DNA of 32,845 bases. It comes from Treponemataceae bacterium (GTDB lineage Bacteria; Spirochaetota; Spirochaetia; Treponematales; Rectinemataceae). Shown here one piece after another: positions 3,911 to 31,411 of this stretch. Positions within the stretch are counted from its first letter, which is position 1. Every line of letters begins with the position of its first letter. A model generated the notes under the pieces. That model searched no databases. It was given only the letters and a program-made list of their open reading frames with translations, and had not been told where the DNA came from. The translations under genes were made by a program, and so were the position numbers. Location: positions 1 through 32,845 of the forward strand of contig CAXXGJ010000011.1 of assembly GCA_963677895.2 (NCBI GenBank), given 5' to 3'.

Positions 3911-5721
3911 ACTTGCAGCTCAGCTCCAGCACGTTCTTCCATTCGGCCTCGGGTACGGCGGCCCCGCCCCCCGTGCCGTCCTCCCACCAGGTATAGGAAA
4001 GCCCGTAGCCGGCCCCGAACTCGAGGGGAACCTTAGCCCCTAGAATCTCAGGCGCTTTTGCGGGTCTCCAGTAGACCTTGAACTTAGCTATGTGGTTGTA
4101 GTCGTAGATGCCGTCGTGGAGGAAGTCCTTGTCACGTAATCGGAAACCCCGCCGGAGCCATAGTCCAGATATTCGTCGACGTCCCCATAGATTTGGTGAT
4201 CCGTCGTGAGGTAATTGGGATTATCCCCATGGCGAATGAAGCTGTACTGGAAATCGGCGCGCCAATCCGCGGCGAGTCGGGTGTCGAGCTTGAGCAGCAG
4301 TTCGTCGGAATTAGGTTTCAGGTGATAGCCCAGGTTTTCGCCGTCGTTGGTATAGTTCGTGTTGACCCGCAGCCGCGTATCGCTGTTCCATGTGGGCGGG
4401 TGGGTATAGACGAAAGGCTCGATCTTTGTGTACTGGGCGGTGAGCGACGCGAAGGGAAGCCAAGGAAGGTCGAGCTTTAACCCGCCCTGATAGGCGAACA
4501 TGTTGCGCGCCTTGCTGAACCATTCATCGAAACCGGAAAGCTCCATCTCGTCGATGTAGAGGGAAGCGTAGACTTTGCCTATCCGTTTCAGGAAAACCTG
4601 AATGTCCCCGCCCAGGCTCATGTTGTCCACGTCAGACTGCGTTACCTGATACTCGACCGCGAACATCATCGGCGAAAGGTAGCCCAGCTCGAGACGCTTG
4701 GCGCCTATCATCGAGCCCGAGGCCGAAAGACTGAGCCACTCGAAGGGAAAGAGCTCCAGCCGCTGGATGGCGAACATCTTCTGCTCGGTGACCGCCGTGG
4801 GATTGCCATCGGAATCGGTAGCCGTCGAACGGTCGGCTTCACGCCTTTCTCCCAGTTGCCCAAGAGAACCGACCATGTGGGAGATCGCGAATATTTCCGA
4901 TGGCCTGAACTGTACTTCCAGCCCCATGAAAGGACGAGCGGTGCCCGAAAGCGCGAGAGAGCCTGAGCCCACGCCCCAGTCGCGGCGGAAGCGGGAGAGG
5001 CGGAACCTGAAAGCCCCCGAATCCGTCGCCCCGGCGATGTCGCTGCGGAGGTCGAAGCTCCAGGTCGGGATAGGCTTCCGCCCCGTCTGTCGCTGGGGGA
5101 GGTGGACACTTTATTGTGGTAGGTGTCCCACTCCTTGGTGAAGGAATAGGGCATATAGAGATCGCGGTTCACCTTATCATAGGTTATGCCGATGGTACCC
5201 CAAAGCGAGAGCCAAGGCTCGGGATAGAGCTTCACGTAGGGCTGGATGAGAGAGTTGAGGTGCCAGAGATCGGCTACGTCGCCGGACCATGCGCCGCTCG
5301 TCCCGCCCGTGGCGAGGTCAGCGATGCCGGCGGCATCGAAGCGTTCGGTGGCCTCGATATGGCCTCCCACTGCCGCCTTGGCGTTGGGCGCCTTCCAGAG
5401 AGCCTGCCCGATATCACCCCGCGCCCCATCCTCGAATTCGGCGGCGATGCCCCGAATTTCGGCCCGCTCGACGGGGGAGAAAACGTCCATATTCGCCTGG
5501 ATCGTCGCGAGGAACTCGGCCACCTGAGCCCGCGTGTAGGGCTTCACCGACGAAAGCCGCGTCAGCACGCCGCGCAGCTCGGCGGTCTCGATGACGCCAT
5601 ACACAGGATGCCCCAGCTCGACGGCGAGATGGGACTGGGCACCGGCCCTCGGCGCCGCCATGAATCCGAGCGCGAAGACCAGCATGGCGCCAATAATCCA
5701 TCGAAGCATATTTTTTGCCAT
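3900..5721 (-). CDS. wzi: Capsule-assembly Wzi-like outer-membrane beta-barrel protein (frameshifts at ~5065-5100 and ~4130-4137)
   Basis: Signal peptide MAKNMLRWIIGAMLVFALGFMAAPRAGA/Q. N-terminal HPVY..IETAELRG..SSVKPYTR motif; RRDWGVGSGSLALSGTARPF and NLGYHLKPNSDE motifs. Joining ORFs 4708..5721, 4088..4972 and a third frame gives a C-terminus ...EWKNVLELSCKFFL* (TAG at 3900-3902). Confidence 0.7.
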
Positions 5722-5849: not shown

Positions 5850-6482
5850 CTACATCGACACGGCGTCCTTGCCGAAAAGGGCATCGGTACAGCCGAAAAG
5901 AATATCGGCCAGATGAACCCGTGAGGCGCCAGCGCCGAAGCCATGATCTGCCTCGGCATCATCGGGCCTTTGCTCGCCGCAGTCTTTTTCAAGACCGCTG
6001 AAGGTTTTGGCGGCCACGAACATGGCGCCGGGAAGGGCGAGCAGGGCTTCACGCCTGGCTTCCACGGGATTTTTCACGAAAGTAAGGCCGTGCCGCTCGC
6101 AGGAATAGTCGAAAAGAAAATCGAGCTCGGCGGGACCTTCGAGCACCAGGATGTCGAAGCCTTCTTTCGAAAGCCGGAGGACGAAGGCATCGATCTTGTC
6201 GCGATAGAGGGAGGCGCTCCGCACCGCCCTCGTGAAGTAGGAGAGCGAACGGCGCAGGACCTCCTCCATTCCGTCTGAGGTGAGGATATAGCGCAGGCTG
6301 CGCCCCGAAAGGTGCATCAGCTTGACCCAGCCCCGCTCGATGAAACGCTTGAGGAGGGCGTTCGTCATCCCCAGGGACAGACCGGAGGCTCCGGCCAGAT
6401 CGCGCTGCGAAGTGGTAGCGGAATCGTCCTGTTTTGAGTAGATGGTTTCAAGGAGTTGAAGCTCTGTATCGTTGGGGGTCAT
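5850..6482 (-). CDS. Winged-helix (EPS-associated MarR-like) transcriptional regulator
   Basis: SQRDLAGASGLSLGMTNALLKRFIERGWVK...RYILTSDG matches the EPS-locus MarR/HTH pattern. ATGA-coupled to the upstream wecA-like gene. Confidence 0.85.
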   Translation of the reverse strand: MTPNDTELQLLETIYSKQDDSATTSQRDLAGASGLSLGMTNALLKRFIERGWVKLMHLSGRSLRYILTSDGMEEVLRRSLSYFTRAVRSASLYRDKIDAFVLRLSKEGFDILVLEGPAELDFLFDYSCERHGLTFVKNPVEARREALLALPGAMFVAAKTFSGLEKDCGEQRPDDAEADHGFGAGASRVHLADILFGCTDALFGKDAVSM

Positions 6483-7543
6483 GTTCCCTTAGGATGGAGA
6501 GAGATGGCGAAGCGAAATAAAAGGCCTAGGATCATCAAGGATATTATTTCAACGGGGAAAGAAAGATATGCGGGAAGCTTACTTGCGACAATAAATACTA
6601 TTGCCAGGCAAGCTGCCGCCGCATAGAGGATACCGAGTATATTGATCAGTCTGTAACCGCTATCGAAAAAGCGATGATGAATATGAAGCCTGTCGGGAGT
6701 GGCGATGCTCACATGGGTCGCCACCCTTCGAACGATGGCGTATAACGTATCGATCGTAGGAATGGCTAAGAGGACGAAGGCCGGAAGCAGACCTATCGTT
6801 TTCACGGCTGTGCTGCCCGATTGACCTATGAAAGGAATTACAGAAAGCGAAAAACCAAGGAAGAGACTCCCCGAATCGCCCATGAACATTTTGGCCCTGG
6901 GCGCCGGAAAGTTGACGATAAGGAATCCCGCGATCGCTCCCGCGAGCATGATGCAGAGAAAACTCGCGGCCGCGTCGCCAGCAAGATAATAGAATGCCGC
7001 GTAGGCGATCGACGCGATAAAGGATAGCCCGCCGGCGAGACCATCCAATCCATCGATGAGATTGATCGCGTTGGTTACTCCGACGATCCAGACGATGCTG
7101 ATGATAGCGGAGAACCACCCAAGGCTGCCTGAAAGCGCGTCGGGAGCGTAGCCGAAGCCCTGGAAGCGATACCCTCCGCCCGCCACGACGACGAGCGCGG
7201 CGCTAATCTGAAATATAAGCTTGGTTCTCGCCTTCACGCCTTTTACGTCATCGACGAGCCCGATAGCGTGGACAAGCGCCGCGCCAATTATAAAGGGCGT
7301 GAGGCTCGCGACTCGCCCGGAAAACTGACGGTAAAGTTCAGCCTCGGCGATCAAGGGATAGGCTATCGCCGCGACGAAGAAGGCCCAGAACATGCCCACG
7401 CCGCCAAGGCGCGGGATTTGGCCGGTGTGGATCTTCCGCTTCCCTAGGCTGTCATAAAGTTCGTTTCTTATGGCAAATTCCAGTATAAGGGGCATCGCGC
7501 TCGCTGAGAGAGCCGTCGAAAGGATTATAGTAGTCCACTGCAC
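6479..7543 (-). CDS. wecA: Undecaprenyl-phosphate GlcNAc-1-phosphate transferase (WecA/TagO, MraY family)
   Basis: RKIH..IPRLGG, GLVDD, NAINLIDGLDGL, FMGDSGS, DRLHIHH motifs; about 10-11 TM helices. Confidence 0.9.
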   Translation of the reverse strand: MQWTTIILSTALSASAMPLILEFAIRNELYDSLGKRKIHTGQIPRLGGVGMFWAFFVAAIAYPLIAEAELYRQFSGRVASLTPFIIGAALVHAIGLVDDVKGVKARTKLIFQISAALVVVAGGGYRFQGFGYAPDALSGSLGWFSAIISIVWIVGVTNAINLIDGLDGLAGGLSFIASIAYAAFYYLAGDAAASFLCIMLAGAIAGFLIVNFPAPRAKMFMGDSGSLFLGFSLSVIPFIGQSGSTAVKTIGLLPAFVLLAIPTIDTLYAIVRRVATHVSIATPDRLHIHHRFFDSGYRLINILGILYAAAACLAIVFIVASKLPAYLSFPVEIISLMILGLLFRFAISLHPKGT

Positions 7544-8245: not shown

Positions 8246-9481
8246 TTATTCCTTTTTCAATTGTTGACGTTGCTTCCTTTCTCCAGAGAACTTTGCCCTT
8301 ACTTCGGGATCGGAAACAAGCTTACCGAAGGCATCGAGCACAAAGGCGAGAAGAACCGAGAGGAATCCGCCGGCCATCGTGCCGACCACACAGATCATGG
8401 ACCGCGAGGGTTCACTTTTCTTTTCGGGTGGGATAGCCCTGTCGATCACCTCGACGAAAACTTTTTCGGTGGCATCCTGCAACTTCATGCTCTCAAGACT
8501 GGAAAGAAGGGTGCCATAGACTTTCGTGGCAAGCTCCAGCTCGGCCGTGAGATTCGCGTACTCCATGAGGGCGCCTGGTGTTTCGCTCATCGAGGGCCCC
8601 ACTCCGCCGCCGGTCTTTTCGAAATCGGCCATCTGCTTCTTGACCGCATCGAGCTGAGTCTTGGCGGAGACAACCTTGGGATTGTCCGACGATAGTGCGC
8701 TCTCGAGACGAGATATCTCAATTTCCAAGGTAATCTTTTGCTGTATCAACGCTTGATAGAGCTGCAACCCCCCAGCGCTCTGAACCTGAGGTTGGACGAA
8801 CTTGTTTTTCTTTTGGTAAGCAGTCAGCTTGTTCTGGGCCGCGCGGACTTTCTGCTCCTGCTCGGTAGCCTGTTGTTCGAGAAGTATTATGTTTTTCCCG
8901 CTCGAAGACAGCACCCTGTCCGCAAGATCCTTTTGGATCATATCCAAGGCGCCATTCGCGATAGTGCTGGAGAGCGTGGCGCTCTTGGTCTTGACGACGA
9001 TCTTCATCACGCTAGTTTTCGTGTCAGTAGATACCGACAGGACATCTTTCCGTAAAGCCTCAACCGCGGCTCCCATCGGCGTGCCTTTTTTGATTTTTTC
9101 CGGATGCTCGATGAGGACAGGAATAAGGTTGAGCTCAGCTACAAGATTTTCCGCGAAACTGCGGCTCTTGAGAATAGCCTCGATCTTTATGGCAGGATCG
9201 CTGGAACTCCCACCGGGCAGGCTCACCCCCGCCATCGCGGCGAGGCCCGCATATTGAGAGAGCAGGGATGAAGAAGACCCGGATATCGGCAACACCGTGG
9301 CGGAGGCGGTGAACATATTGGGCTGCATGAGGGCGTAGACCACCGACAGAACAGCCGCTGCCGCCGTGACCGTCACTATGAGCATCTTGCGCCGCCACAA
9401 GGTGGCGGCGAGATCCACGAGACTTATCTCGTCGTCGCTCCCAGAAGCCGGCGTTTTATTTTCCATTTCGTTGTCGGACAT
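8246..9481 (-). CDS. wzz: Polysaccharide co-polymerase / chain-length determinant (Wzz/GumC-type, no kinase domain)
   Basis: DDEISLVDLAATLWRRK plus N-terminal TM, periplasmic coiled-coil, VIDRAIPPEKKSEPSR Pro-rich motif plus C-terminal TM. GGAG RBS upstream. Confidence 0.9.
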   Translation of the reverse strand: MSDNEMENKTPASGSDDEISLVDLAATLWRRKMLIVTVTAAAAVLSVVYALMQPNMFTASATVLPISGSSSSLLSQYAGLAAMAGVSLPGGSSSDPAIKIEAILKSRSFAENLVAELNLIPVLIEHPEKIKKGTPMGAAVEALRKDVLSVSTDTKTSVMKIVVKTKSATLSSTIANGALDMIQKDLADRVLSSSGKNIILLEQQATEQEQKVRAAQNKLTAYQKKNKFVQPQVQSAGGLQLYQALIQQKITLEIEISRLESALSSDNPKVVSAKTQLDAVKKQMADFEKTGGGVGPSMSETPGALMEYANLTAELELATKVYGTLLSSLESMKLQDATEKVFVEVIDRAIPPEKKSEPSRSMICVVGTMAGGFLSVLLAFVLDAFGKLVSDPEVRAKFSGERKQRQQLKKE

Positions 9482-9494
9482 AAAAGCTCCTCGC

Positions 9495-12400
9495 TCAGAG
9501 ACCCAGGAGGGAAACGGTGCTCATGACGGTGTACATGATCTTATATCCCGAGTCGATAATATCCTTGAAGAAGCCCCATCCTACGTTGATCTTGGAGGAC
9601 TTCGCCACGACGACGACCGTATCGCCCGGGTAGAGCTCAAATTTGAGAATACTCGGCCTAAAGAAGAGGAAGCCCTTGCCCTCTATACTGTCAAGTTTGC
9701 CCGACGCCCGCATTATATAGGTTTTCTGGAGATCGGCGTTGTTCGAAAGCCAACCGGATTCGGCGATGGCCTGGCGAACCGTCAGCCCATCCCTGAAAGC
9801 CACGACATTCTGGTCAGATACTTCGCCCGACACAAGGACATAGGTGGGAGTAGTCGGTACAAAGATGAGATCGTCGCGCTCCAGGACGACGTTGGAGGAC
9901 GAGCGAGCAAGCTCTTCGACCGTGGGGGGAATATCGATGGAAATCCGGCCAAAGCCGTCTTTGTACATTTGCTTGAGGCTGCCCAATCTGGCCCGCTGTA
10001 CGGCGAGATCTATCTGAAGATTGGCTATGACGGCGGCGGCCGAGCTGAGGGCTGTGTCGGTCGAATTGGGTAAGGCGTTCCCCGCACCCGTGACGGCTTC
10101 CAGCTGGGATATGATTCTATCCACTTGCTTTTTCTGGTTTTCGGCCGCCGTTCTGCGGATGAGAATGATGCCCTTGGGGTAAGCCCGGGAGTCATAACCA
10201 CCAGCGGCCTGGAGAGCGTCGGCAAGCTTCATACCGTCCATGAATTCGATGGACTGAGGCGCCTGGACCGCTCCGCGTACCGTTACTATCGGCAGGTTCT
10301 CCTCCGGAAGGAGCTGTTTGAAGGAAATAGCATCCCCGGGCTGAAGCACTAGCTGTATGGCGGACTGGCGCTTGAGATATTCCTCAAGATAGATATTCAG
10401 GGTTTCTCCGTTCGTTCTGGTGACAACAGCTTTGAGGGAATCAAGATCTATCTTCAGCTTCACCGAGCGGAGAACTTGGGAAAACTCCATATTGTCATAG
10501 TAGGGGATGACCTTAGGTTCCTGAACCTCACCGGAAGCTGTCACAGGAAGCTTATTGTATTTGGGATAGAAGATGACGTTGTCACGGGGTTGGAGTTCAA
10601 CATCGGTCCTGCCCTGGACAATATTGGACGGGGAGAAGCTTAGGATGGTCTCGGAATCCATGCTGCGACGCCGGACTTCGGCGTAAGATGTATCGGTTTC
10701 GATGAGAAGATCGTCCTCTGCTAGGATGTGAGAGAGCTGCAAACCTTCGTACCAAGCATAACGGCCGGGATATCGCGTGGTACCTTTTATGAGTACTGTG
10801 TCTGGATTGCGGGAAAAATCGTAGGTCTGGGTTTTTTCATCGGCCGGAATGAGCCTTATAATATCACGAGGGAATATTCTTTCATCCTGCAAACCCACAA
10901 GGACGGCGTAAGGACTGAAGGTTTTGTATTCTATCCTTCCTCCCATTATCCAGCGTTCGATTTCCGCGAAATAAAGGTAGGTAGTGCTGATAACCTGTTC
11001 CGGCGTGATGATCTCCGAAAGAAGCTTAGGTGTATCGGTAGAATAGAGACCTGTGCGTCGGGCAGAGCCTACCACGGCGTATGCATTACCAAAGTGATCG
11101 AAGTCGGGTTTTTCGGGAAGATAGCCGACTTTAACGAAGCGAATCGAATCCTGAGCTCTGAGATCCATATCCATTTTACCGGCAAGCACTTCGCGCGGCG
11201 AGAAGCTCTTGAATTCCCAGCCTCCATCGGGTTTTCTCCGAGTAAGCTCCGCATAATCGAGATTGGTTTCCTGGAGTATCTGCTCCGAGGTGACCACGGA
11301 GGAGAGTTTAAGCGTAGGAGTACGGGCGTAGGGACCGATATAGCGAATAACTCCGGAAACATTGACGATTTCAAGGAAGAATCCGACATCGGGGGATATA
11401 TCGGATGAACTCGGCGCGGAAAGCGCCGCCGCAGCGGGTAAAGCCGCAGACGATGCCGCAGGTGGTCCAGCCTCGACCGATGTCGACGATATCTGCCCAT
11501 TTGGAGTTCCATTATTTACGGGACCCAAGGTCTGGCTTTGAATGGGTGGAGAGAGGGTCGAATAGTATTGGATCATATCCTTGGGCTGCAGTTCAATATC
11601 AAAGATTCCGGAACCAACTTCCCTGGGTGCGAAGGTGACGGTCTGTTTTTTGCCGCCCTTGAGAGGCCTAACGATTTCGGCATAGACCTGATTCATGACG
11701 AGAAGGGGTTTTACCATGGTCCTGAATGGCCGAAAGCTTCATGCTTTTCTTCCAGGCGAAGATGCCAGAGAACTGGGTAGGTCCCGTAACCAGGACGGCT
11801 TCGGGGTAACGATCGAAGTCGGGTGTTTCGGGCCTATAATTAACCTTTACAAGCTTTATCTGATCGCGAGGACCTACTTCGAAGTCCCATGCACCGCTCA
11901 GCACCTCTGCAGGTCTGAAGGTTAAGTACTCGTTTTTCCCATCGGCCTTGAGCCTCGTTATCTCGGCGTAGTTGAGGTTTGTATCCAGCAGTATCTGGTC
12001 TTTTGTAATGAGCGTCGAAAGTTTCATGCCTGGCCGCAGCGCAAATACCTCAGGCCTTGTCACCTGGCCAGTAAGCTGAACTACATCGGCAAATTTCTCG
12101 ACATTCGCGGCGGCAAGCGTCCCGCCGAACGTGGTCTTCTTTACGAGTCGGATGGAATCCTTGGCTCGAAGCGCTAGGTCGAATTTTTTCTCGAGCACAT
12201 CCTTAGGCGCAAAGGTCACATATTCATAGCTTCCGTCATTCTTGAGCCTCGTCAGTTCGGCGTAATCGAGGTTGGTCTCCTCGAGCATCTGGTCGGCGCT
12301 GATCACCGAGGAAAGCTTAAGAGTAGGGGTACGAGCCCAGGGGCCTGAGTAGCGAACCGTACCGGAGACCGTCACCACTTCGAGGAAACGACCCAAATCG

Positions 12401-15400
12401 GCGGGAGATTCGGCGGAAGGCAAGCCAACAGGGGGCGCAACGGCAATAACCGCCGCCGTCGTTTCCCCTGTCACAACGGGGGCGGGTCCAGATAATTGGA
12501 CAGGAGCGGCAGGACTTGTCAGGACCTACAGGAGTCGCCTCAGTAGAGGCGGCCTCAGTAGAGACGGTCTCAGTAGAGGCGGCCTCGACGCCCTGTTTAA
12601 GGGGAGCCGCAGGAACCGTTGTATAGAAGCGGACGGAATCCCTCGCCTTAAGGGAGAGATCAAAGATTCCAGCCACCACTTCCTTCGGGGAGAAGGTGAG
12701 GTATTCGAACTTGTCGCCACCAAGAGGGCGAACGATTTCGGCATAAACTTGGTTGATCACGAGCGAGGGTTTGGCTTTCGCGAGCAGAGAGGAAAGCTTC
12801 ATGTCCTCACGCCAGGCGTAGAGGCCGCCGAACTGGACAGGGCCTATAACTTGCACTGCGGAGGAGAACCGATCGAAGTCCGGCATTGCGGGAGCGTAGC
12901 CAACTTTGAGAAGCTTCACCACATCGCGGGCGCCCAGGTCGAAATCCCAGGATCCGTCCAGTACTTCAGAAGGCCTGAAGGTCAGGTACTCGTTCTTTCC
13001 ATCGGTCTTGAGGCGCGTTATCTCGGCGTAGTTGAGGTTCGTATCCAGAAGCGCCTGATCCTTCGTCAGGATTTTCGAAAGCTTCATGCCGGGGAGAAGG
13101 GCATACAGCTCGGGACGAGCGGCCTGACCGGTGAGCTGCACAACGTCAGCGAACTTCTCAATATCCACGGCACCAAGAGTTCCACCGAATATAGTTTTCT
13201 TGACAAGCCGGATCGAATCCTTAGCCTGAAGGGGAAGATCATACTTCCCTTCAAGGACTTCGCGTGGGGCGAAAGTTTGGTATTCGGAAGAACCATCGGC
13301 CTTGAGCCGGGTGAGTTCGGCGTAATCGAGGTTGGTCTCTTCGAGCATCTGGTCGGCGGTGATCACCGAGGAGAGCTTCAGGGATGGAGTCCTGGCATAA
13401 GGGCCGGTATAGCGAATAGTGCCAGATATCGTCACCACTTCAAGGAAACGTCCAAGATCGGAAGGAGAAGCTTCGCTGCTTACCTCAAACATCGAAGCTG
13501 ATGCTGTTGAACCAGGAACAGAAGCAGTTGGCGCAGTTGTTTCAGTCGGCAATTCGGCGGCCAGTTTAGTGGTTGCCGCAGGCGCCGTCGTATAGAGCTT
13601 CACCACGTCGCGAGCCTGAAGCTCAAGATCGAAGGAGGTATCAGCTACTTCGCGCGGCGCAAAGGTCAGGTATTCGTATCGTCCACCACCCTTGGGTCTC
13701 ACTACTTCAGCATAATATTTATTGGTCTCCTGAGCGGGCTGAGCCAGCGAAAGAAGAGCCGAGAGCTTCATGCCGCTTTTCCAGGCGTAGAGGCCACTAA
13801 ATTGGACAGGACCTGTTACCTGCACTGCGGAGGAGAAACGATCGAAGTCGGGCTTTGCGGGAGCGTAACCCACTTTGAGGAGCTTCACCAGGTCGCGGGC
13901 GCCCAGGGCGATATCCCAGGAACCGTCCAAAACTTCGGAAGGCCTGAAGGTCACATACTCGTTCTTTCCATCGGCCTTGAGACGCGTTATCTCCGCGTAG
14001 TTGAGGTTTGTGTCCAGCAGCACCTGATCCTTCGTCAGGATCGTCGAAAGTTTCATGCCAGGTCGAAGCGCAAACAGCTCAGGCCTTGCCACCTGGCCGG
14101 TGAGCTGCACCAGGTCGGCGAACTTCTCAATATTGGCGGCGGCCAGCGTGCCGCCAAACGCGGTCTTCTTCACGAGACGGATCGAGTCCTTCGCTTGTAG
14201 CGCGAGGTCAAATTTCTTCTCTAGCACCTCTTTGGGGGCGAAGGTTTTGTATTCGGAAGTACCATCCGCCTTGAGCCTTGTTATTTCGGCATAATCGAGG
14301 TTCGTCTCTTCGAGCATCTGATCTACGGTGATCACCGAGGAGAGCTTCAAGGTAGGCGTACGAGCCCAGGGACCTGTATAGCGAACCGCCCCAGAGACCG
14401 TCACCACTTCGAGGAACATGCCCAGGTCGGCGGGAGATTCGGCGGAAAGCGCGGAAGGCATAACCGCGAGAGTCGCAGCGGGGGCTGATCCAGGTGATTG
14501 GACAGGAGAAGCCTCAGCGGGAGCAGCGGGTGTGGATTGAGCTGGAGAGGACAGGATAACAGGACCTTCAGGACCGATAGGAGAATCCGCGCCCAGATTG
14601 GCCGTCGCCGTGGGAACCGTCGTATAGAAGCGGACCGAATCCCTCGCCTTAAGGGAGAGATCGAAGATGCTAGCAACCACTTCCTTCGGGGAGAAGGTGA
14701 GGTATTCGAACTTATCGCCACCCAGAGGGCGGACAATTTCGGCATAGACTTGGTTGATCACGAGCGAAGGTTTGGCTTTCACGAGCAGCGAAGAAAGCTT
14801 CATCCCATCGCGCCAGGCGTAGAGGCCGCCGAACTGGACAGGACCCGTCACCTGCACGGCGGCGGGAAATCGATCGAAGTCGGGTTTTGCGGGAGCGTAG
14901 CCCACTTTGAGGAGCTTCACCACGTCGCGGGCGCCCAGGTCGAAATCCCAGGATCCGTCTAAAAGCTCTGAAGGCCTGAAGGTCACGTACTCGTTCTTCC
15001 CGTCGACCTTGAGACGTGTTATCTCGGCGTAGTTGAGGTTTGTGTCCAGAAGCGCCTGATCCTTTGTCAGGACCATCGAAAGCTTCATGCCGGGACGTAG
15101 CGCAAAAACCTCAGGCCTTGCCGCCTGACCGGTGAGCTGCACCAGGTCGGCGAACTTCTCAATATTCGCGGGGACAAGAGCTCCACCAAACACAGTTTTC
15201 TTAACGAGACGGATCGAGTCCTTGGCTTGAAGCGCGAGGTCAAATTTCTTCTCTAGCACATCTTTGGGGGCGAAGGTCAGGTATTCATAACTTCCATCAA
15301 CCTTGAGCCGCGTGAGTTCCGCGTACTCGAGGTTCGTATCTTCGAGCATCTGATCGGCGGTGATCATCGAAGAGAGCTTCAGGGTGGGTGTGCGAGCCCA

Positions 15401-17824
15401 GGGGCCTGCGGAGCGGACCGCGCCAGAGACAGTCACCACTTCGAGGAAGCGGCCTAAATCGGTGGGAGTTTCTGAGGAAGCCGGACTATCACCTGCGACT
15501 GGTGCTGCTACGGGCGCGGTCGCTTCGACAGTGGTGGTCGCTGGTGCTGCGGGTGCCGCGGGCGCTTCAACGCCCAGTTTGGCCGCCGTCCTGGGTACCG
15601 TCGTATAGAAGCGGATAGAATCCCTTGCCTTCAGGGAAAGATCAAAGATTCCAGCCTCCACTTCCTTCGGGGAGAAGGTGAGATATTCGAACTTGTCTCC
15701 ACCAAGCGGGCGGACAATCTCGGCATAGACTTGGTTGATGACAAGCGAGGGCTTTGCCTTCGCGAGCAGCGAGGAAAGCTTCATATTCTCGCGCCAGGCG
15801 TAGAGCCCGCCGAACTGTACGGGACCAGTCACCTGTACCGCGGCCGAGAATCGATCGAAATCGGGTTTCGCGGGAGCGTAGCCCACTTTGAGGAGCTTTA
15901 CCATGTCGCGGGCGCCTAGGTCAAAGTCCCAGGAACCATCGAGAACTTCGGATGGTCTGAAGGTCACGTACTCGTTCTTTCCATCGGCCTTGAGGCGCGT
16001 TATCTCGGCGTAGTTGAGGTTCGTGTCCAGAAGCGTCTGATCCTTCGTCAGGATCTTTGAGAGCTTCAGCCCCGAACCCAATGCGTACACTTCCGGCCGT
16101 AAAACCTGGCCCGTAAGCTGCAGGGCATCTGAGAATTTGTCAAAATCATGGGCTGCCACATCGGCGCCGTGTTTCACGAAGCGCACTCTGTCGAGCCTAG
16201 AAAGTGTAAAATCCTTCGCCCCGGAGAGGATTTCTCGCGGCGAGAAAGTGAAGTATTCCTCGGCCCCGGAGGCGGATTTTCGGATTATCTCGCCATAGAA
16301 GGGGTTGGCGTCGAGCGTGAGTGCGTTATTGGAGAGGAGGCCTGAGAGCGTCGAGGCTTCCTTATAGAGATAGAACCCCGGGTATTTTACCGGTCCCGAT
16401 ACCACGAGGGTATCCGCGAAGCGGTCGAAATCGGGGTCGAGCCCCACATCGTCGTAGCGGTACAGCACTACCCTATCGAATTCGGCAATGGGAATATCGG
16501 CACCTGAAAGAACATCGCGGGGGGAGAAGGCGAAGGATTTGTCCCTGCCGGAAAGATCCATGCGATAAACGCGACCATAGAAGAGATTCGTTTCGGCGAC
16601 AACTTGGGCTTTGGACAAGAGTTCCTTTACCGTTTTAAAAGAAGAAATCTCATAACGGCCAGCGTATTTTACAGGACCGCTCACCTGCGCCTGGCCCACG
16701 AGAAGCTCGGTAACCTTGCCGAAGTAGACGAAGTCGCCGTCGGAGGCGAGCTTTGAGGAGAAGGAAGCGTTGGATAGATCGCCTGAGACAAGGCTTTTGC
16801 CCGATTCGGCGAAGCGAAGCAGCGTCACGCCGCCAGAACGAGCCGAGGGCAAGGCGCCGCCCGCGAGCCCGAGCGCGGTCGCGATGCTGGTGTCGCCTTT
16901 CAGTTCATAAATGCCCGGCCGCTTGAGTTCGCCCGCCAAGGCCGCTACTGGACCGATGCCCGGTACGAAGAGGGAATCGCCCTCTCGAATGCGCAAATCT
17001 ATGGGAAGGCCCTTCATCAGACTGTCGTAGAAATCGATTTCCAGTTTTTCGGCCGCGCCCTTTGCTTGCCTCGTAAGCACGACTTTGCGCAGCGAGCCCG
17101 TCTTCTTGATCCCGCCCGCCCTGGAAAGGACGGTGAGAATCGTATCGGCCCCGGAAGCGAGCACCGTGCCGGGATTCCCCGCATAGCCCGAAACGAAGAC
17201 CGGAAACTGTCGCAAGGTGGCGAGGGTGAGGCTCATCTCGAGCTTCTTGTAACGCCGATCGAGCATGCTCTTGATGACGGTCCGTACGGTGGCAAGATCC
17301 TGGCCCCAGACCGCGATCTGTCCTGCGGGAGGAAGAAAGATATTCCCGTTGCGGTCAACCGAGAGCGTATAGGAAGCGGAGATTTCTTTGATATCGACAG
17401 GATCTCCCCAAAGGTAGAGAACGAGGCTGTCGCCAGGCCCCAGCACATAATCGTCGCCGATGGAAGCAAGCGAGGGCGCGGTGGGCTTTTCAAAGAGCGA
17501 ATAGCCGAACTGGGAAAGTTCCTGAGCGGGAGTACCAAGTCCCGTGGCCATGCCCGCGAACATGGATTCAAGAGGAGAGAGGATAGCGTTAATCGGGGCA
17601 ACAGTGGGAGCAGCCGCAGCCGGCGCCCCCGGAGAAGCGAGAGCGTTCACAGTGGGCAGTGCGGGCGCTATGGTCGGAGCAGTTCCACCCGAGGCGCCCT
17701 GCACGGCCAGCGCCTGCGCTATCGCCGCCTGGTCCATGGCTTGAGCGCCGGCTGAAAAGGATAAGCCCACCGTAAAAGCGAGCAAGAAGGTCAGGGCAAT
17801 TGCTTTTCTTCTATTGATCGGCAC
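9495..17824 (-). CDS. wza: Giant SLBB-repeat polysaccharide export protein (Wza/KpsD/OtnA-like), ~2775 aa after removing two 1-base insertions (~12526, ~11721)
   Basis: Poly_export motif DDYVLGPGDSLVLYLWG...VDRNGNIFLP, ~24 SLBB-type starts (V.V.G.V..PG and variants), and a C-terminal amphipathic helix (WGFFKDIIDSGYKIMYTVMSTVSLLGL). ORFs 12317..17872, 11668..12474 and 9495..11717 continue one another across frame changes. GTG 17824 follows GGAG and starts a signal peptide. Confidence 0.85.
11363..16150 (-). repeat. Intragenic tandem array of ~1-kb modules (3 SLBB domains + Ala/Pro/Ser/Thr linker)
   Basis: Anchor tcaccacttc(g/a)aggaa (FLEVVT) at 15433, 14401, 13432 and 12372, with a diverged copy at 11363. 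Spacings are 1032, 969, 1060 and 1009 bp. Confidence 0.92.
12537..12586 (+). repeat. 3.3 x 15-bp tandem repeat inside a linker (encodes ASTET-VSTEA-ASTEA)
   Basis: gcctcagtagaggcg gcctcagtagagacg gtctcagtagaggcg gcctc. Confidence 0.85.
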
Positions 17825-17947
17825 TTTCAAACTCCGGATTCGTTGTGTTGCTTGTTCAGTATAATACATCATTTTTATTTATTTCCTATAGTGGCAAACA
17901 TATTCGATGGTTTGGAGAAACGGCAAACCATGAATTTTTCAGATGGT

Positions 17948-18925
17948 CTAGAGACGTATATGACCGTGCAGCCTGTTAAACAGGTGGGAACAGGTGCAGG
18001 TTTCATAAAAGGACTCCAGATAATCCTGCCAACCATGGGAAGGGAAAGAGAGGTTCGCGAGGATTTTGGAACAGGCGAGGTGACAGCAGGATGGCCGGGG
18101 CGCCCTGTCGGGGAAGGCTTCGGCGGGGACGTGGCAAAGGGCCACTGAGCGTTCGATGAAGTTATACTTCAAGGCAAGGCGAGCGTTTTCGGCCGCGAAA
18201 CCAGCCCAAGATACTTTGCCATCATCGACGTAATGGTAGATGCCGCCTGAAAGCGGCAAGAAATGCGTATTTTCGCCGGGGAAAAGGCTAATGGAACCTT
18301 TTTCGCAGAGGGTCATGCCGAGGAGGGCGTCGGAAAGGTTCCGGACCCAGGTGGGCGAAGCGACTTCGTCGTTGACGATGGCAAGATCGGTACCTGTCAG
18401 GGAAGCGCGGATAAGCCCAAGAAGGAGGTTAGCGAAGGGGCCGAACTCCTCGTCGCCATAGAGCCAGCCTGTGCGCAGGACGAGGGATGAGGAATTGGCA
18501 GCCAAGAGGGCACGCTCACCTTCAAGCTGGCACCGGCCAAGAACGTTGACCGGACGGCAGCTTCTCGATTCGGCGTAGCCGCGAGAGACAAGGTTGCCTG
18601 AAAAAACATAGTGCGTGCCCACTGAAATAAAGCGGACTTTGAGCCGCAAAGCCATAGCTGCCAGAAGGGGCGGAAGGACGGCGCTTTGGTAGCGGGGATT
18701 ATCAGGTTCGCGCTCGCAGCGATCGGGGTCGAAGTCGGCCCCACAATAAATGAGATGGGTGAGGCGCGGGGCCGCTTTGAGCCTTGCCTCCAGGTCATCT
18801 AGCGCATGGGCACTGGGAGCGGCAAGCTCGAGCCCCGTACCGATAACTTCGACACGCAGCTTGCCGAAGACCAATGAGGCGGCCTGGCCGAGCATCTTAT
18901 GTATTCCTACTATACAGACTGCCAT
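17948..18925 (-). CDS. rmlD: dTDP-4-dehydrorhamnose reductase (RmlD)-like SDR with degenerate catalytic motifs
   Basis: RmlD-like layout (CEREP, YVFSG, PVNV.G, VLRTGWLY, VNDEVASPT, GIYH, APRP). GxxGxxG reads GIHKMLG, STDY reads GTHY, YGxSK reads LGRCQ. Confidence 0.7.
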   Translation of the reverse strand: MAVCIVGIHKMLGQAASLVFGKLRVEVIGTGLELAAPSAHALDDLEARLKAAPRLTHLIYCGADFDPDRCEREPDNPRYQSAVLPPLLAAMALRLKVRFISVGTHYVFSGNLVSRGYAESRSCRPVNVLGRCQLEGERALLAANSSSLVLRTGWLYGDEEFGPFANLLLGLIRASLTGTDLAIVNDEVASPTWVRNLSDALLGMTLCEKGSISLFPGENTHFLPLSGGIYHYVDDGKVSWAGFAAENARLALKYNFIERSVALCHVPAEAFPDRAPRPSCCHLACSKILANLSFPSHGWQDYLESFYETCTCSHLFNRLHGHIRL

Positions 18926-18943
18926 GATAATTATTAATGCCTG

Positions 18944-19609
18944 CTAAAGGTGCAGGGCATCTGGCGGTATTGGCAGATCCTTGAACCACTTTTTCCATAA
19001 CGTTGTTCGTGGGCTCACCAGCGACCAGGCGGTAAGGAAGATGAGTTTGAAGTAATTCCCCAGCGTGCGGTTTTTTGTCCACCAGACTTCGAGATCGCCC
19101 TTGTAGGGAGCGATGACCGTATCATGAAAGTGGTCACGGTCGCTGGGAACTTCATCGAGGATGGATTCCTCATCGCGGAATATCACAGAGCCAATGCCAG
19201 TAAGGCCAGGCGGTACGGCGTCGATAGCCGCACGAACCGGAACCGAATACAGTTCATAGTGGCGCCTCGCCTGAGGGCGGGGACCGACAAAGCTCATTTG
19301 ACCTAAAAAGATGTTGACGAGCTGAGGAAGTTCGTTGATCTTCGTCTTTCGAAGGAAATTGCCCATGGGCAGAATACGCGGATCATTTTTCTGCGTGAGA
19401 ACGCCCCCAGGCAGGTTGGGACTGTTTTTAAGCATGGTGGCGAACTTATAAACATTGAAATCGCGGCCGCCTGAGCCGACGCGGGGCTGTAGGTAGAAGA
19501 TATAGTGCTCGCCTGTGAGCTTAAGGCCGATCATGATGGGCAGCATGAAGGGGAAGAGAACAAGCATTGCGAGTCCTGAACAGACTATGTCGAACATTCT
19601 AATGAGCAA
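18944..19609 (-). CDS. Small polyisoprenyl-phosphate hexose-1-phosphate transferase (Bac_transf; PglC/WbaP C-terminal type), copy A
   Basis: RMFDI, KFATM, DPRILPMGNFLRKTKINELPQLVNIFLGQMSFVGPRP, PGLTG; TTG start. Confidence 0.9.
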   Translation of the reverse strand: MLIRMFDIVCSGLAMLVLFPFMLPIMIGLKLTGEHYIFYLQPRVGSGGRDFNVYKFATMLKNSPNLPGGVLTQKNDPRILPMGNFLRKTKINELPQLVNIFLGQMSFVGPRPQARRHYELYSVPVRAAIDAVPPGLTGIGSVIFRDEESILDEVPSDRDHFHDTVIAPYKGDLEVWWTKNRTLGNYFKLIFLTAWSLVSPRTTLWKKWFKDLPIPPDALHL

Positions 19610-19611
19610 GA

Positions 19612-20802
19612 TTACATCCTTCCATCGAGAAACTTGCCTGTTTCTTTGTGGGCGAATTCAGGGATGGTAGCGTTGAAGAGGTCGATAAGCGCGCCCCGGG
19701 TCCAGGAGCCCCGGGCGCGCATGGCGCGGATTTCGGATTCGAAACGTTCGAGGGCGGGCACGTCATAGGCAGGATCATTTTTAATGACGCCGATGGATTC
19801 GAAGCGGTCTAGGTCGAGGCTTTCCTTATCGGTAAAGAACTCCTCGAAGTCCTTTTCGCCCGTCGTGTCGCTCGCGAAGAAGAAAACGGGCCACTTGCCC
19901 TGCGCTTTCAATTCGCCCACGCGAGAACGGGCTTCGTCCTCGCTCGAACACTCCACTGGCTCATAGCCCCGATGTTTCAGATATCTTTCCGCGATCTCGG
20001 AGAAGGTTATGAGATTCGCCTCCGCGTCGAGCTTGGGGAAGAAGAGGTCGCGGTTTTCGCCCAGGAGGGCGGACATCAGGCAGAGTTCGCCCGATTCCTT
20101 GGGCGTGACAAAGTAGCGTCTGACATCGTTGGGAGCGGAAATGGGTTGTTCTTTCTCAAGGCGTCTATTGAAACCATAGAGAAGGCTTCCATCGGAGAAG
20201 GCCACGTTGGCGAAACGGGCAGTGGAAACGGGCAGCTCGAGGCTCCGGCGCATAAGAAAGTATTCCATGATGCGTTTGCTGGCGCCCATCATGTTCACGG
20301 GATTGGCCGCTTTGTCGGTCGACACGCAGAAATATTTCCTCGCGCCCGCCGCCGTGGCCTGTCTCATGGTCTTGTCAGTGTTGAACACATTGACGTCGAC
20401 CATGCGCATCAAGGTATAAGGATCCTTCTCGCTGCGCACATGCTTCAGCGCGGAAAGATTGAGCACATAATCGTAGCCGAGGCCATTCGCTATGAAGGCA
20501 TCGAAAATTTCGCTGCCCGCATCGATCGCGAAGGTAGCGAACTCGCCGGAAGAATAGCCGATGGACGAGCGCAGGTCGCGCACCAGCTCGACCATGTTGT
20601 TCTCGCTGATATCCACCACATGGAGCAGCTTCGGATCGCGCCTGAAAATCTCGCGCGTGACCGCCTGGCCGATGGAGCCAGCACCACCGATGACGAGAAA
20701 GCGAGAGGCCTTGACGAGGCGCGACAGCTCGACCTCGCGGGAAGCCAGATCGGCAGCGAAGAGCTCTTCCTTTCTACCGATGATATCAAGAATGGAATCC
20801 AT
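19612..20802 (-). CDS. UDP-N-acetylglucosamine 4,6-dehydratase (CapD/PglF-type SDR, Polysacc_synt_2)
   Basis: GGAGSIG, SALKHVRSE, STDKAANPVNMMGASK, RFANVAFSDGS. Confidence 0.88.
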   Translation of the reverse strand: MDSILDIIGRKEELFAADLASREVELSRLVKASRFLVIGGAGSIGQAVTREIFRRDPKLLHVVDISENNMVELVRDLRSSIGYSSGEFATFAIDAGSEIFDAFIANGLGYDYVLNLSALKHVRSEKDPYTLMRMVDVNVFNTDKTMRQATAAGARKYFCVSTDKAANPVNMMGASKRIMEYFLMRRSLELPVSTARFANVAFSDGSLLYGFNRRLEKEQPISAPNDVRRYFVTPKESGELCLMSALLGENRDLFFPKLDAEANLITFSEIAERYLKHRGYEPVECSSEDEARSRVGELKAQGKWPVFFFASDTTGEKDFEEFFTDKESLDLDRFESIGVIKNDPAYDVPALERFESEIRAMRARGSWTRGALIDLFNATIPEFAHKETGKFLDGRM

Positions 20803-20840
20803 GGCACACCTTATCGTAGTATTTTTTGAAAAGGAAAATT

Positions 20841-20874
20841 GGACAAGATCACAAGACTACAGGATGACAGGAAC
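20841..20874 (+). repeat. Intergenic 4 x 8-bp ACA(A/G)GA tandem motif
   Basis: gg acaagatc acaagact acaggatg acaggaac; same core as the repeats at 2603 and 3873. Confidence 0.6.
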
Positions 20875-20893
20875 GAAAAGTCAAAAATCGGGG

Positions 20894-21565
20894 TCAGACC
20901 CCCAAATGTAACTCTTCAGGCGGCTCGGGCAAATCTTTGAACCATTTTTTCCACAAGGATGTGCGAGGACTGAATAGCGCCCACGCGGTGAGAAATATGA
21001 TCTTAAAATAGTTCCCAACCGTACAATGCTTGGACCACCAAAGCTCAAGCTCGCCCTTGAAAGGAGCAATTACTTTATCATGAACATATTTCCTATCCCC
21101 GCCAATTCTATCGAGAACACCTTCCTCATCCCGAAAAATCAACGAAGCGATCCCAGTCAAGCCAGGAGTCATCGTCAATATCGCTTCCCTTGTCTTCTCA
21201 GGATAAAGCGCTAAATGCTGTGCAACAATAGGCCGCGGCCCCACGACGCTCATCTGACCAATAAAAATATTGAGAAGTTGCGGCAACTCATTGATCTTCG
21301 TCTTACGAAGAAAATGACCCATAGGTAATACCCTAGGATCTTTCGACTGTGTGATGAAGCCGCCAGGCAAATTCGGGCTATTTTTTAGCATTGAAGCAAA
21401 TTTTAATACATTAAATTTCACTCCACATTTCCCTACACGAGGCTGCAGGTAGAAAATGTAATGTTCTCCCGTAAGCTTCAACCCGATAATAATCGGAATC
21501 ATAAAAGGAAAGAGAACAATCATCGCAATGCAGGAGAAGACAATATCAAAGAAGCGTATCAACAT
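20894..21565 (-). CDS. Small sugar-phosphate transferase (Bac_transf), copy B
   Basis: Same motifs as 18944..19609. By my ungapped count, 158/221 residues are identical. More AT-rich codons. Confidence 0.9.
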   Translation of the reverse strand: MLIRFFDIVFSCIAMIVLFPFMIPIIIGLKLTGEHYIFYLQPRVGKCGVKFNVLKFASMLKNSPNLPGGFITQSKDPRVLPMGHFLRKTKINELPQLLNIFIGQMSVVGPRPIVAQHLALYPEKTREAILTMTPGLTGIASLIFRDEEGVLDRIGGDRKYVHDKVIAPFKGELELWWSKHCTVGNYFKIIFLTAWALFSPRTSLWKKWFKDLPEPPEELHLGV

Positions 21566-24646: not shown

Positions 24647-25447
24647 TTATTTTTTAAAGCATTTTGATAATGGAACAAGTTTTGCTCCATCCTCAATTAA
24701 ATAATTATATAATTCGATCAGTTGCATTTTTAATTCTGGATTCTTTATTAAGGACCAATAGTGTGTGTAAATTACAAACGGATGTCCTTTAATTTTACAC
24801 ATCTTGTATTCATATTTTAGACGATCTATTCGATCAATACCATATGCATTTAGCTCTAAGTGTTTCCCATAATTTAATATTCCACCATATGGAATATTAT
24901 ATATTAATCTATAACTCCATCTCAATAAATAATTAATAAAATAGCGAATTGTGATCATACGGTCATTGTGTTGGATAATTCCAGAATAATTCATATCTAA
25001 TTTTTCTAAAGTATTTATTGCTTTTTTATTAATCATATTATTTGGAGCAATAAAAATAGATACTTTTGTATTAAAAAGTTTTTCAAGTAATATTTTCCCA
25101 GATTGAATTTCTTTGTAAATATTTCTTTTATCTTTCCATATCATTTCAGCTTGCCATTTTCCAAAATATTTTTTATATTCATGAGAATATCCGTGCATCA
25201 GTATCTCTACTCTTTTTGCTTCTTTTTTTTCTTTTAGCCATTTAATTAGTTCAATATTACCTTCTATTGAATAATATCCATAAGGAATTCCTTCTCCATA
25301 TGGAAATATTGAATCCTTGTGTACAGGAACCGTAAAAGGTACAATTGATATAGAAATACAACCATCTTTTAAAAAATCATATGCCATTTCAAATTCTTGA
25401 GGTTTTGTAAAATATGAAGTATCGTCATCTCTAATTGCAAATATCAT
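24647..25447 (-). CDS. Polysaccharide deacetylase-like protein (DUF2334-type)
   Basis: FAIRDDD, EILMHGYSH, FIAPNN, YTHYW NodB-like motifs. Confidence 0.75.
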   Translation of the reverse strand: MIFAIRDDDTSYFTKPQEFEMAYDFLKDGCISISIVPFTVPVHKDSIFPYGEGIPYGYYSIEGNIELIKWLKEKKEAKRVEILMHGYSHEYKKYFGKWQAEMIWKDKRNIYKEIQSGKILLEKLFNTKVSIFIAPNNMINKKAINTLEKLDMNYSGIIQHNDRMITIRYFINYLLRWSYRLIYNIPYGGILNYGKHLELNAYGIDRIDRLKYEYKMCKIKGHPFVIYTHYWSLIKNPELKMQLIELYNYLIEDGAKLVPLSKCFKK

Positions 25448-27776: not shown

Positions 27777-28062
27777 TATCTTATCCAACCTTTCAATGAT
27801 TTATGATTTACTATTTATAGTGTTTATTATCTTACTATCACATATTATAATTTAAAAATATTATGATACTTTTATTATTAACGTTCAACGTTTTTATCTT
27901 ATTAAAAAATATTTAATTTTTTTATTTGCTTGCTTTAGATAGTAAATATACTATTATACTACAGCTTTAAATATTTTTTAATTTTTATGAACAATAATCA
28001 ATTTATACTCCAAATAATCATCCATAAATATTTAATTATTTTAATATTACTACATACTTCTT

Positions 28063-29484
28063 TTATGCTTTTTTTATTTTAATTATTCTTCTTAGCATTA
28101 TACCTAATTTTTTCAAGTAACTTTTATACATTATGGATATTATAAATATTATTACACACTGTATTATTATTGTATCAATTTTAAATCCCTCTAATGATAT
28201 TTTAAACTGTATTAAAAGCAAAATATATGAAATAATATTTTTTATTAAATACAATTTAAATTTTACATACTTTTTTATATCTATTAGTCTAATAACCCAA
28301 ATTATTATCGATGATATCATTGTGCATATTGCCGCACCCATTATTCCATATGACGGAACAAATATAATATTTAATATAATATTGCTTATAGCACCTATAA
28401 TTGTTGCTTTTGATATATTTTTTGTAGCTTTTTTTGCTATCAACAGGCTCCCAATAAAACCAGAAAGACTGCTGAATACAACTGCGATAAGAATTGGCGG
28501 AACATATTTCCATGCAATAAAAAAATCTCTTCCATATAATATCTTAGCTAATGGAATATTCAAAAAAATGATAATTGAACAACAAAATACAAGGAAAAAA
28601 TTATAAAAATCATACATATTACTTATAAAGCTTGTTTTATCATTTGAATCAAATTCTTTTATAGCAGATAGTTGCCAAGCTTGAGAAAACGCATCACTAC
28701 ATGTTGTAAGAATATTTGGAATTTTATATGCAACCGTATAAATACCATTGTATGAGGCACCAATGAACCATAGAATAATATAGCGTGCTGAAAGATCATT
28801 AATCCACCAGCCAATTCTATTTAATATCAACGGAGAACTAAATTTTTCCATTTCATAGCAAAGATTCCTTTTAAATGATTTTATTTTAATAAATCTCCAA
28901 ATTTTAATGCGAAAACATATCCAAAAATTGGCAATAATAGTACCAAGAAAATTTGCTAATAGATATCCATCTATTCCTAGTTTCAAAATTGGAAGAAATA
29001 TTATATTAAAGGTACAGCTCGCTGCAGTTGTAATAATACTAGCTTCTACTAATACCTGCAATTTATCAATACCACGTACGAAATTAATTAAAATGCTATA
29101 TAATCCATTTGCAAAGACTAAGAAAAAAAAATATAATAAATATTTCGCTGGAATATTTGGATTATGAAATAAGCTTATTAAAAATATGCAAACTAAACAG
29201 ATAATCATTCCACGAAGGAATACCCAAAGCGCGCTCATAAGTACTTCGGCAGACTGATATTCAATATCGATACTAAATCGCATAACAGCATCTTGAATTA
29301 CAAGTAACAATATAGGCATGGCTAATCCAGCAGTAGATGTTATTATATCTGCTGTTCCATAATCTTTAGTTGAAAGATACCTAGTAAATAGGGGTACCAT
29401 TAAAAAAGCGAGTATTTTTGGGCCAAAGCTACTAATTGAAAATAATAATATGTTTTTAGATAGATAATTATACCTTTGCTTCAC
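28063..29484 (-). CDS. wzx: Polysaccharide flippase Wzx
   Basis: Polytopic membrane protein; FLMVPLFTRYLSTKDYG, GIYTVAYKIP, YGIMGAAI motifs. Confidence 0.88.
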   Translation of the reverse strand: MKQRYNYLSKNILLFSISSFGPKILAFLMVPLFTRYLSTKDYGTADIITSTAGLAMPILLLVIQDAVMRFSIDIEYQSAEVLMSALWVFLRGMIICLVCIFLISLFHNPNIPAKYLLYFFFLVFANGLYSILINFVRGIDKLQVLVEASIITTAASCTFNIIFLPILKLGIDGYLLANFLGTIIANFWICFRIKIWRFIKIKSFKRNLCYEMEKFSSPLILNRIGWWINDLSARYIILWFIGASYNGIYTVAYKIPNILTTCSDAFSQAWQLSAIKEFDSNDKTSFISNMYDFYNFFLVFCCSIIIFLNIPLAKILYGRDFFIAWKYVPPILIAVVFSSLSGFIGSLLIAKKATKNISKATIIGAISNIILNIIFVPSYGIMGAAICTMISSIIIWVIRLIDIKKYVKFKLYLIKNIISYILLLIQFKISLEGFKIDTIIIQCVIIFIISIMYKSYLKKLGIMLRRIIKIKKA

Positions 29485-29507
29485 TATGTATTCCCTTTTA
29501 ATATTTA

Positions 29508-30223: not shown

Positions 30224-30225
30224 TT

Positions 30226-31407: not shown

Positions 31408-31411
31408 AAAA

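Follow-up and report, generated by a model that had tools for sequence, protein, structure and literature searches.

Why does a capsule locus of a Treponemataceae bacterium (GTDB family Rectinemataceae) encode an outer-membrane polysaccharide exporter (OPX) of 2,775 amino acids (aa)? The gene lies in the window analysed here, a stretch of 32,845 nucleotides (nt) that is the whole of contig C11 (CAXXGJ010000011.1) of assembly G000 (GCA_963677895.2; 3.5 Mb, completeness 92.8%, contamination 5.5%). Is it one gene, or the product of an assembly error? If it is one gene, does the length of its product reflect the width of the periplasm that it would have to cross? The original prediction, made from the sequence of the window, was of a single giant exporter of the Wza/KpsD type, and this is supported by a Poly_export domain, 24 beta-grasp domains, a GfcC module and a C-terminal helix. 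The answer to the second question that we favour, and hold to be reasonably probable, is that the giant OPX is an export conduit lengthened to cross a periplasm of some 50–70 nm.

In the list of open reading frames (ORFs) of the window, the gene appears as three minus-strand ORFs, 12317..17872, 11668..12474 and 9495..11717, each in a different frame. Reading through both breaks, with X at each, from the GTG at 17824 gives 2,777 positions of a continuous repeat protein, which become 2,775 aa after the two extra bases are discounted (8,330-2 = 8,328 nt). The GTG is preceded by GGAG, 7 nt upstream. The gene and its breaks are placed as follows.

9495..17824, minus strand: giant Class-2B OPX gene, a single gene with two 1-base consensus insertions (read-through, C6 allele, Logan contigs, count by hidden Markov models (HMMs))
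12520..12526, minus strand: break 1, one surplus base, within linker 4 (frames, Logan contigs)
11720..11721, minus strand: break 2, one surplus base, within domain C5 (frames, C6 allele, Logan contigs)

Contig C6 of the same assembly carries a syntenic locus with an intact OPX frame of 2,505 codons. Identity between C6 and the window is 95.5% in the flank and 89.6% over 3900-12421, and relative to the C6 allele the window has a single extra base at 11720. Logan contigs of run X1, which may be the source sample, omit one base at 11721 and one at 12520; the base at 11721 is likewise missing from a contig of run X2, which comes from a different study. Each of these contigs is single, with a depth of 2.5–3.4; 46 of 59 records of X1 match the window at 99% or more. 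Both runs also remove extra bases in wzi (4838-5094), an error of the same kind. The ratio of nonsynonymous to synonymous divergence (dN/dS) is low on either side of both breaks, and an intact orthologue is present in genome G001. Because the Logan contigs, the intact C6 allele and the intact homologues agree, the most plausible reading of the breaks is as errors in the consensus of a contig from a minor strain; C11 probably represents such a strain, or a sister species, that was binned together with the main one. Both false insertions are at GGWCC sites (GGTCC and GGACC; 12520-12526 and 11717-11722), a possible sign of long-read errors linked to methylation; this motif is lacking at the wzi errors.

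The three ORFs of the window would also fit three distinct genes, a pseudogene or an artefact of assembly, and the contigs without the extra bases are indeed single and shallow. Yet the intact syntenic allele within the same assembly, the G001 orthologue with 33 further intact homologues, the short contigs without either break and the low dN/dS flanking each break contradict such a reading, which we consider barely credible and largely refuted already. Over-expansion of the array during assembly is excluded, since the repeats share at most 79% DNA identity and synonymous divergence (dS) between copies is 0.39–3. The three ORFs are thus, as predicted, one gene of 8.3 kb, borne out by the C6 allele, the Logan contigs and the G001 orthologue.

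Typed HMMs give the domain order signal - Poly_export - s1 s2 s3 s4 - B C - (linker A B C) x4 - linker A t1 t2 t3 - g1 g2 - helix, with the parts at the following positions.

17744..17824, minus strand: Sec/signal peptidase I (SPI)-type signal peptide without a lipobox Cys (sequence; A-X-A site judged by eye)
17525..17743, minus strand: N-terminal Ala/Pro-rich low-complexity segment (sequence composition)
17210..17473, minus strand: Poly_export domain PF02563 (Pfam E 1.8e-12; Wza fold match)
16130..17206, minus strand: four unique beta-grasp domains, s1-s4 (Pfam, typed HMMs, model)
11538..16129, minus strand: repeat array, B-C then four A-B-C triplets, 14 domains (typed HMMs, model)
15458-15574, 14426-14593, 13457-13561 and 12397-12592, minus strand: Pro/Ala/Ser/Thr linkers of the array (sequence)
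11388..11537, minus strand: linker 5, disordered, predicted local distance difference test (pLDDT) below 50 (AlphaFold model, sequence)
10305..11387, minus strand: beta-grasp domains A6, t1, t2 and t3 (typed HMMs, AlphaFold model)
9594..10304, minus strand: GfcC-like module, two beta-grasp domains with an inserted helical hairpin (structure matches to 3P42)
9498..9593, minus strand: C-terminal amphipathic helix, putative outer-membrane pore helix (model, sequence; position by analogy to Wza_C/KpsD)

Typed HMMs and a generic repeat profile agree on 24 beta-grasp domains besides Poly_export, of which Pfam alone names few. This confirms the count of about 24 repeats and one Poly_export domain that had been proposed; the triplet description needed refinement, as the last two domains form the GfcC module with its helical hairpin. 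Poly_export PF02563 scores 47.7 bits against a cut-off of 28. The signal peptide does lack a lipobox Cys, as predicted, and there is no Cys anywhere in the protein. The linkers are 35–66 aa long and 59–72% Pro/Ala/Ser/Thr; O-glycosylation of them was considered, and only sub-threshold Wzy_C matches were found. Residues 108-1077 and the last 740 residues were modelled with AlphaFold2; each repeat folds in a common beta-grasp pattern, with pLDDT mostly 80–95 in the repeats and below 50 in the linkers (predicted template modelling score 0.51–0.52). Structure comparison gave Wza as the best match and, for the final 270 residues, GfcC (PDB 3P42; Z 10.5, 201 aligned, root-mean-square deviation 4.6, template modelling score 0.58–0.61 by target). 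Pfam PF06251 (GfcC) gives no match to the giant OPX, and the profile match is weak (E 0.21). The predicted Wza-like amphipathic helix at the C-terminus is present, as residues 714-737 of the model, at low pLDDT and with a hydrophobic moment of about 0.5; PF18412 does not match it. A phmmer search of the C-terminal ORF against the PDB returned no match, and a profile search did. Relative to the G001 orthologue, dN/dS is 0.01–0.11 across all 26 parts, a mark of purifying selection.

The Poly_export domain, the SLBB beta-grasp domains and a polysaccharide locus with a co-polymerase place the protein among the OPX. A GfcC module after the SLBB array, a helix beyond it and a signal that is of SPI type by eye are the marks of Class-2B, and by this predicted architecture the giant OPX is a Class-2B (KpsD-like) OPX, Sec-exported and non-lipidated. 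Assignment to Class-1 (the Wza type, a lipoprotein without GfcC) was rejected, there being no Cys and GfcC being present. Class-2B proteins have the order Poly_export-SLBB-GfcC-helix, are mostly Sec/SPI, and have a median of 824 aa and 1–6 SLBB domains by Pfam (PMC9603273). OPX with at least 10 SLBB domains reach at least 1,672 aa in the tables given there, in which spirochaete rows include lengths of 258–596 aa (Saidi et al. 2022, PMC9603273); longer Class-2 proteins may be among the rest. The suggestion of an undescribed system was therefore overstated: the giant OPX belongs to a known class, in which it is extreme in length and has linker-hinged triplets.

KpsD, the Class-2B protein of Escherichia coli group 2 capsules, shares the arrangement Poly_export - SLBB(n) - GfcC - amphipathic helix and the non-lipid SPI signal. 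The giant OPX differs from it in its 2,775 aa, its 24 beta-grasp domains, its disordered linkers and its Wzz partner in a Wzx/Wzy locus, in place of KpsE/KpsMT. E. coli Wza (PDB 2J58) has the Poly_export and beta-grasp folds and the C-terminal helix in common with it; unlike the giant OPX, Wza is a lipoprotein of less than 400 aa, without GfcC and with the kinase Wzc as its partner. GfcC itself is a stand-alone periplasmic protein with a barrel, GfcD, whereas it is fused in the giant OPX. Vibrio WbfF/OtnA is a long SPI-type OPX of about 900 aa beside a kinase-less Wzz/OtnB. Multi-SLBB OPX of Limnochordia, other Bacillota, Thermotogae and Armatimonadota share tandem beta-grasp arrays, but are on separate branches of the tree and have no periodic linkers; none is characterised in the literature searched.

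A search limited to 970–3,089 aa found 42 close relatives, several of them labelled Rectinema or Spirochaetales; from these homologue labels G000 is probably close to Rectinema, and its clade is called Rectinema-like here. Among the homologues with both ends (n = 33), 24 are at least 2,000 aa, with a median of 2,414, and most carry 21 beta-grasp domains. Lengths of 2,200–3,600 aa are common among the Rectinema-like spirochaete homologues, that of G019 having 3,578 aa and 29 domains; homologues of 3,694–5,000 aa were sought and none was found, which is weak evidence. Short OPX frames are also present in the flagellin-less genomes G074 (513, 766), G088 (337, 900), G018 (308) and G029 (301). A repeat profile was also searched over 1.84 billion representatives, with a ranking that favours the giant OPX family, from which the profile was partly built. 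Six of the best 150 matches are at least 2,000 aa: three belong to the giant lineage, and a second spirochaete lineage, Limnochordia and other Firmicutes contribute one each. Metagenome OPX from other groups have 2,040–2,313 aa and 22–28 domains, and a Bacillota cluster (P0124, P0043, P0127) has 1,826–2,563 aa and 21–28 linker-free beta-grasp domains. Among the giants examined, periodic disordered linkers are confined to the giant spirochaete lineage, and no other has the linker-hinged triplet design.

The second spirochaete lineage is the native treponemal OPX, about 25% identical to the giant OPX and on a separate branch of the OPX tree. In flagellate or outside genomes, seven complete or near-complete copies have 488–549 aa and two more have 901 and about 770; in the flagellin-less clade, at the same locus, it has 1,517–2,124 aa and 13–22 domains (examples are L013:5174-11521, L014:2902-9276, L088 and L087). 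This expansion, from about 5 to 22 domains, has triplet periodicity and no long linkers, and is independent of that of the giant OPX in the same clade.

Are other proteins that span the envelope lengthened in the same bacteria? Flagellin is found in 0 of 40 genomes of 13 genera, against 28 of 29 genomes of the other 8 genera of the family, and in a 16-row tree of the OmpA part of the tether described below the ten flagellin-less rows form one clade (support 100/99). Neither flagellin nor FlhA was found in G000. TamB is an inner-membrane-anchored, periplasm-spanning bridge, and that of Borrelia ends at residue 1,465 (PMC13382580). The longest ORF of G000 is a TamB of 2,911 aa, directly upstream of bamA (G000:C38:346970-355705; L031:6971-15706, minus strand), with four old internal repeats at 35–49% identity. 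TamB beside bamA has 2,900–2,911 aa in genus g1, 2,603 in G019, a span of about 2,870 in G073 and 1,977 in G071. In flagellate genomes of the family it has at most 1,541 aa (25 with a match; about 1,470 in sister genera), and in other families at most 1,576 aa in 23 of 24 genomes. The 34 flagellin-less genomes with a TamB match yield six frames above 1,900 aa, besides the G073 span. Of 20 other TamB loci examined in the clade, 12 run off the contig end and three have N gaps; the TamB repeats of G019, G071 and G073 are 98–99.8% identical, and such near-identical repeats would be expected to break or collapse short-read assemblies.

The tether is a barrel-Ig-OmpA protein of 2,241 aa (G000:C17:5950-12675; L033:2951-9676, minus strand), with 16 FlgD-type immunoglobulin-like (Ig) repeats, a C-terminal OmpA part and an N-terminal region that is PorV/FadL-like, a lead given by atlas neighbours of high similarity (0.97–0.98). 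It is a likely candidate for an outer-membrane-to-peptidoglycan tether. Six of the eight complete flagellin-less loci have 16 Ig repeats, the other two having 20 and, in G019, 48; five of six comparison loci have 8 and one has 12. Sixteen repeats are found across at least five genera. Frames of at least 2,200 aa occur in 23 of the 39 flagellin-less genomes with a match, and frames of at least 1,900 aa in 0 of 29 flagellate genomes. The three longest non-adhesin ORFs checked in G000 include TamB, the OPX and the tether. The same genome encodes a 2,604-aa secreted protein with PKD/Ig-like repeats (G000:C12:110851-118665; L032), possibly a surface adhesin or S-layer-like.

The doubled TamB, the doubled tether and the parallel expansion of the second OPX suggest a very wide periplasm, and give indirect support to that part of the original prediction. 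The periplasmic flagella that it had named as one possible cause of the width are not borne out, flagellin being absent from G000 and the clade. The rise per Wza ring is about 2.5–3 nm, and at this rise the 25 periplasmic domains would span an estimated 60–75 nm if straight. With an Ig domain length of about 3.5–4.5 nm, 16 Ig domains would give an estimated 56–72 nm, against 28–36 nm for eight; the doubled TamB suggests a change in the same direction. An initial reading of the OPX as not a periplasm ruler was dropped after the TamB and tether results.

How might such a conduit work? The non-lipidated Class-2B OPX would be exported by Sec, and capsule made by Wzx/Wzy would be carried across the periplasm. 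By analogy with Wza and KpsD, Poly_export would dock at the inner membrane on an oligomer of Wzz, about eight chains would together build an outer-membrane pore from their C-terminal helices, and the beta-grasp domains would stack in between; an octameric polymer-exporting channel is putative for the giant OPX. Wza is an octamer of 140 Å whole length (PMC12881504), and in an octamer model of KpsD the C-terminus is surface-exposed (PMC11041684). Extra triplets would lengthen the conduit in a flagella-less clade that would hold its outer membrane much farther out, with the disordered linkers as hinges or slack between rigid triplets. The number of modules need only roughly match the gap and could drift by recombination. 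The two alleles in the assembly carry 24 (C11) and 21 (C6) beta-grasp domains, and slack in the linkers would allow them to coexist. They are mosaic, dS being above 1 across most of the 5' part and 0.3–0.7 in the 3' part, which makes recombination in the array the likely source of the variation in module number.

Several observations weigh against an OPX length set by the periplasm. Domain number spans 11–29 within the giant lineage, and nine of the 33 complete homologues have only 1,076–1,827 aa; one of these, at 1,477 aa, carries the label Rectinema sp. G001 additionally holds OPX frames of 807 and 264 aa. Two flagellin-less genomes have a complete-looking TamB of standard size (G076, 1,416 aa; G016, 1,493 aa); repeat collapse or contamination could be the cause of the short TamB and OPX frames in G076, G016 and G001. 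The flagellate G014 has a 12-repeat tether with a standard TamB, and the G019 counts rest on 99%-identical repeats and are not mutually proportional. Other envelope parts of G000 are ordinary (TolC-like proteins of 428–444 aa, membrane fusion proteins of 379 and 458 aa, BamA with 5 POTRA, LptA-like, Wzz), as is the G019 secretin. TonB length is uninformative: two clade genomes have 311–332 aa and two others 237, but one flagellate genome has 313. Wzz homologues have about 398–441 aa whatever the OPX length; since Wzz is not lengthened, the whole increase has to be taken up by the OPX, in agreement with the fourfold growth of the latter. Over 92 pairs, OPX length and periplasm width were uncorrelated, with widths of 210–442 Å in all but one strain (PMC9603273). 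All the cases belong to one clade, so their co-occurrence is not statistically independent, and no envelope image of the clade was found in the literature searched.

Could the periplasm instead be ordinary? The conserved N- and C-terminal domains might form a channel of normal length, while the linker-flanked triplets loop away from it, as arms or as a cage around it, and there bind polysaccharide or peptidoglycan or store polymer ahead of export. A long disordered linker after every third domain, unique to this lineage among the giants examined, would suit such arms, as would the 11-domain forms and the ordinary efflux and BAM parts. But this leaves the doubled TamB, the doubled tether and the linker-free expansion of the second OPX unexplained, and several homologues link C to A without a long linker; we regard it as unlikely. 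Or, has unequal recombination inflated several secreted proteins, their length itself unselected, in an envelope of unchanged width? Recent duplications, 98–99.8% identical, in TamB, the tether and the OPX of G019, G071 and G073 are what this would produce, and the mosaic alleles and variable module number agree with it. Strong purifying selection on every module speaks against it. So do the clustering of lengths, most homologues having 21 domains, the second lineage 22 and at least five genera 16 Ig repeats, and the presence of TamB, OPX and tether among the longest ORFs, and tolerated expansion is in our view quite improbable. The idea that several repeats of one chain build each ring, with fewer than eight chains in a channel of normal length, draws on the triplet periodicity of both expanded OPX lineages. 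Each chain has one Poly_export domain and one C-terminal helix, however, whereas eight are required for the pore of Wza and in the model of KpsD (PMC9603273, PMC11041684), and G019-type homologues combine blocks of two, three and four domains, so that very little weight can be given to it.

The extended conduit is thus the reading that we retain, and it can be taken further in a form that is possible but short of probable. On losing periplasmic flagella, the Rectinema-like clade may have rebuilt its envelope around a periplasm whose width, about twice the usual, is set by the barrel-Ig(16)-OmpA tether; internal duplication would have brought the lipid bridge TamB and two unrelated capsule channels to the new scale. 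The giant OPX would then be a hinged, bellows-like polysaccharide tunnel of 60–75 nm, one of the longest conduits so far proposed to cross the periplasm, and periplasm width would be predictable from sequence by counting repeats in these genes.

The genes around the exporter bear on what it would carry. They are as follows.

8246..9481, minus strand: Wzz-like polysaccharide co-polymerase, 411 aa, Wzz and GNVR, no kinase domain (Pfam)
6479..7543, minus strand: WecA/GT4 initiating transferase (Pfam)
5850..6482, minus strand: MarR_EPS-like regulator (match below cut-off)
4088..5721, minus strand: Wzi-like outer-membrane protein, split by 1-base errors; the C6 allele has 604 aa (weak Pfam E 0.004)
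17948..21565, minus strand: RmlD-like, two sugar transferases (PF02397) and a Polysacc_synt_2 dehydratase (Pfam)
24647..32662, minus strand: low-GC (27%) polysaccharide cassette with Wzx flippase, pyruvyl transferase, GT1/GT4 and probable Wzy (Pfam)

The ordinary 411-aa Wzz predicted beside the exporter is there, and no Wzc kinase reaches the cut-off in the profile search. The ORF at 30226-31407 is a probable Wzy, judged from hydrophobicity and place, without a Pfam match. Among the 24 window ORFs scanned there is no ABC (ATP-binding cassette) transporter family, the rest of the genome not being searched. ABC-dependent export by KpsMT/KpsE was rejected at this locus, as there is no kpsM or kpsT among the window ORFs and Wzx is present. 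From this gene content, the exporter would serve a Wzx/Wzy-made capsule.

The cassette, at 24647-32845, has 27% GC in a 56% GC background and is bounded by IS66 (22697-24616), which is frameshifted at 22736 relative to a copy on contig C9, and by another repeat like an insertion sequence (21734-22532). A conserved secreted-looking hypothetical protein lies at 7564-8166, between wzz and wecA; it has no Pfam or NCBIfam match, and its close atlas neighbours (0.92) are unnamed. An acyltransferase at 1823-2614, outside the read check, has an 11-base insertion at 2495 relative to the C6 allele, which shifts its C-terminus. The assembly holds two versions of the capsule locus (G000:C6:33126-56109 and window 1-22532), with flanks 88–95% identical and with differing cassettes and OPX module numbers. 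Genome G001 contains three such loci.

No paper on the giant spirochaete OPX, a doubled TamB or the barrel-Ig-OmpA tether was found in the literature searched (subscription papers excluded). What appears to be new, on sequence comparison, is the clade-wide lengthening of TamB, the tether and the second OPX that accompanies loss of flagellin. Rectinema cohabitans is described as a rod-shaped spirochaete, and one Rectinema species is in culture (PMC6052044). On whether OPX length and the periplasm are matched, a broad survey answered no; here three kinds of envelope-spanning protein are lengthened together as flagellin is lost, which provides a test case at the level of a clade. If the extended conduit is real, it would show how trans-envelope machines are rescaled, name a candidate ruler of the spirochaete periplasm, and reveal a new envelope plan in bacteria that are common in anaerobic digesters and aquifers.

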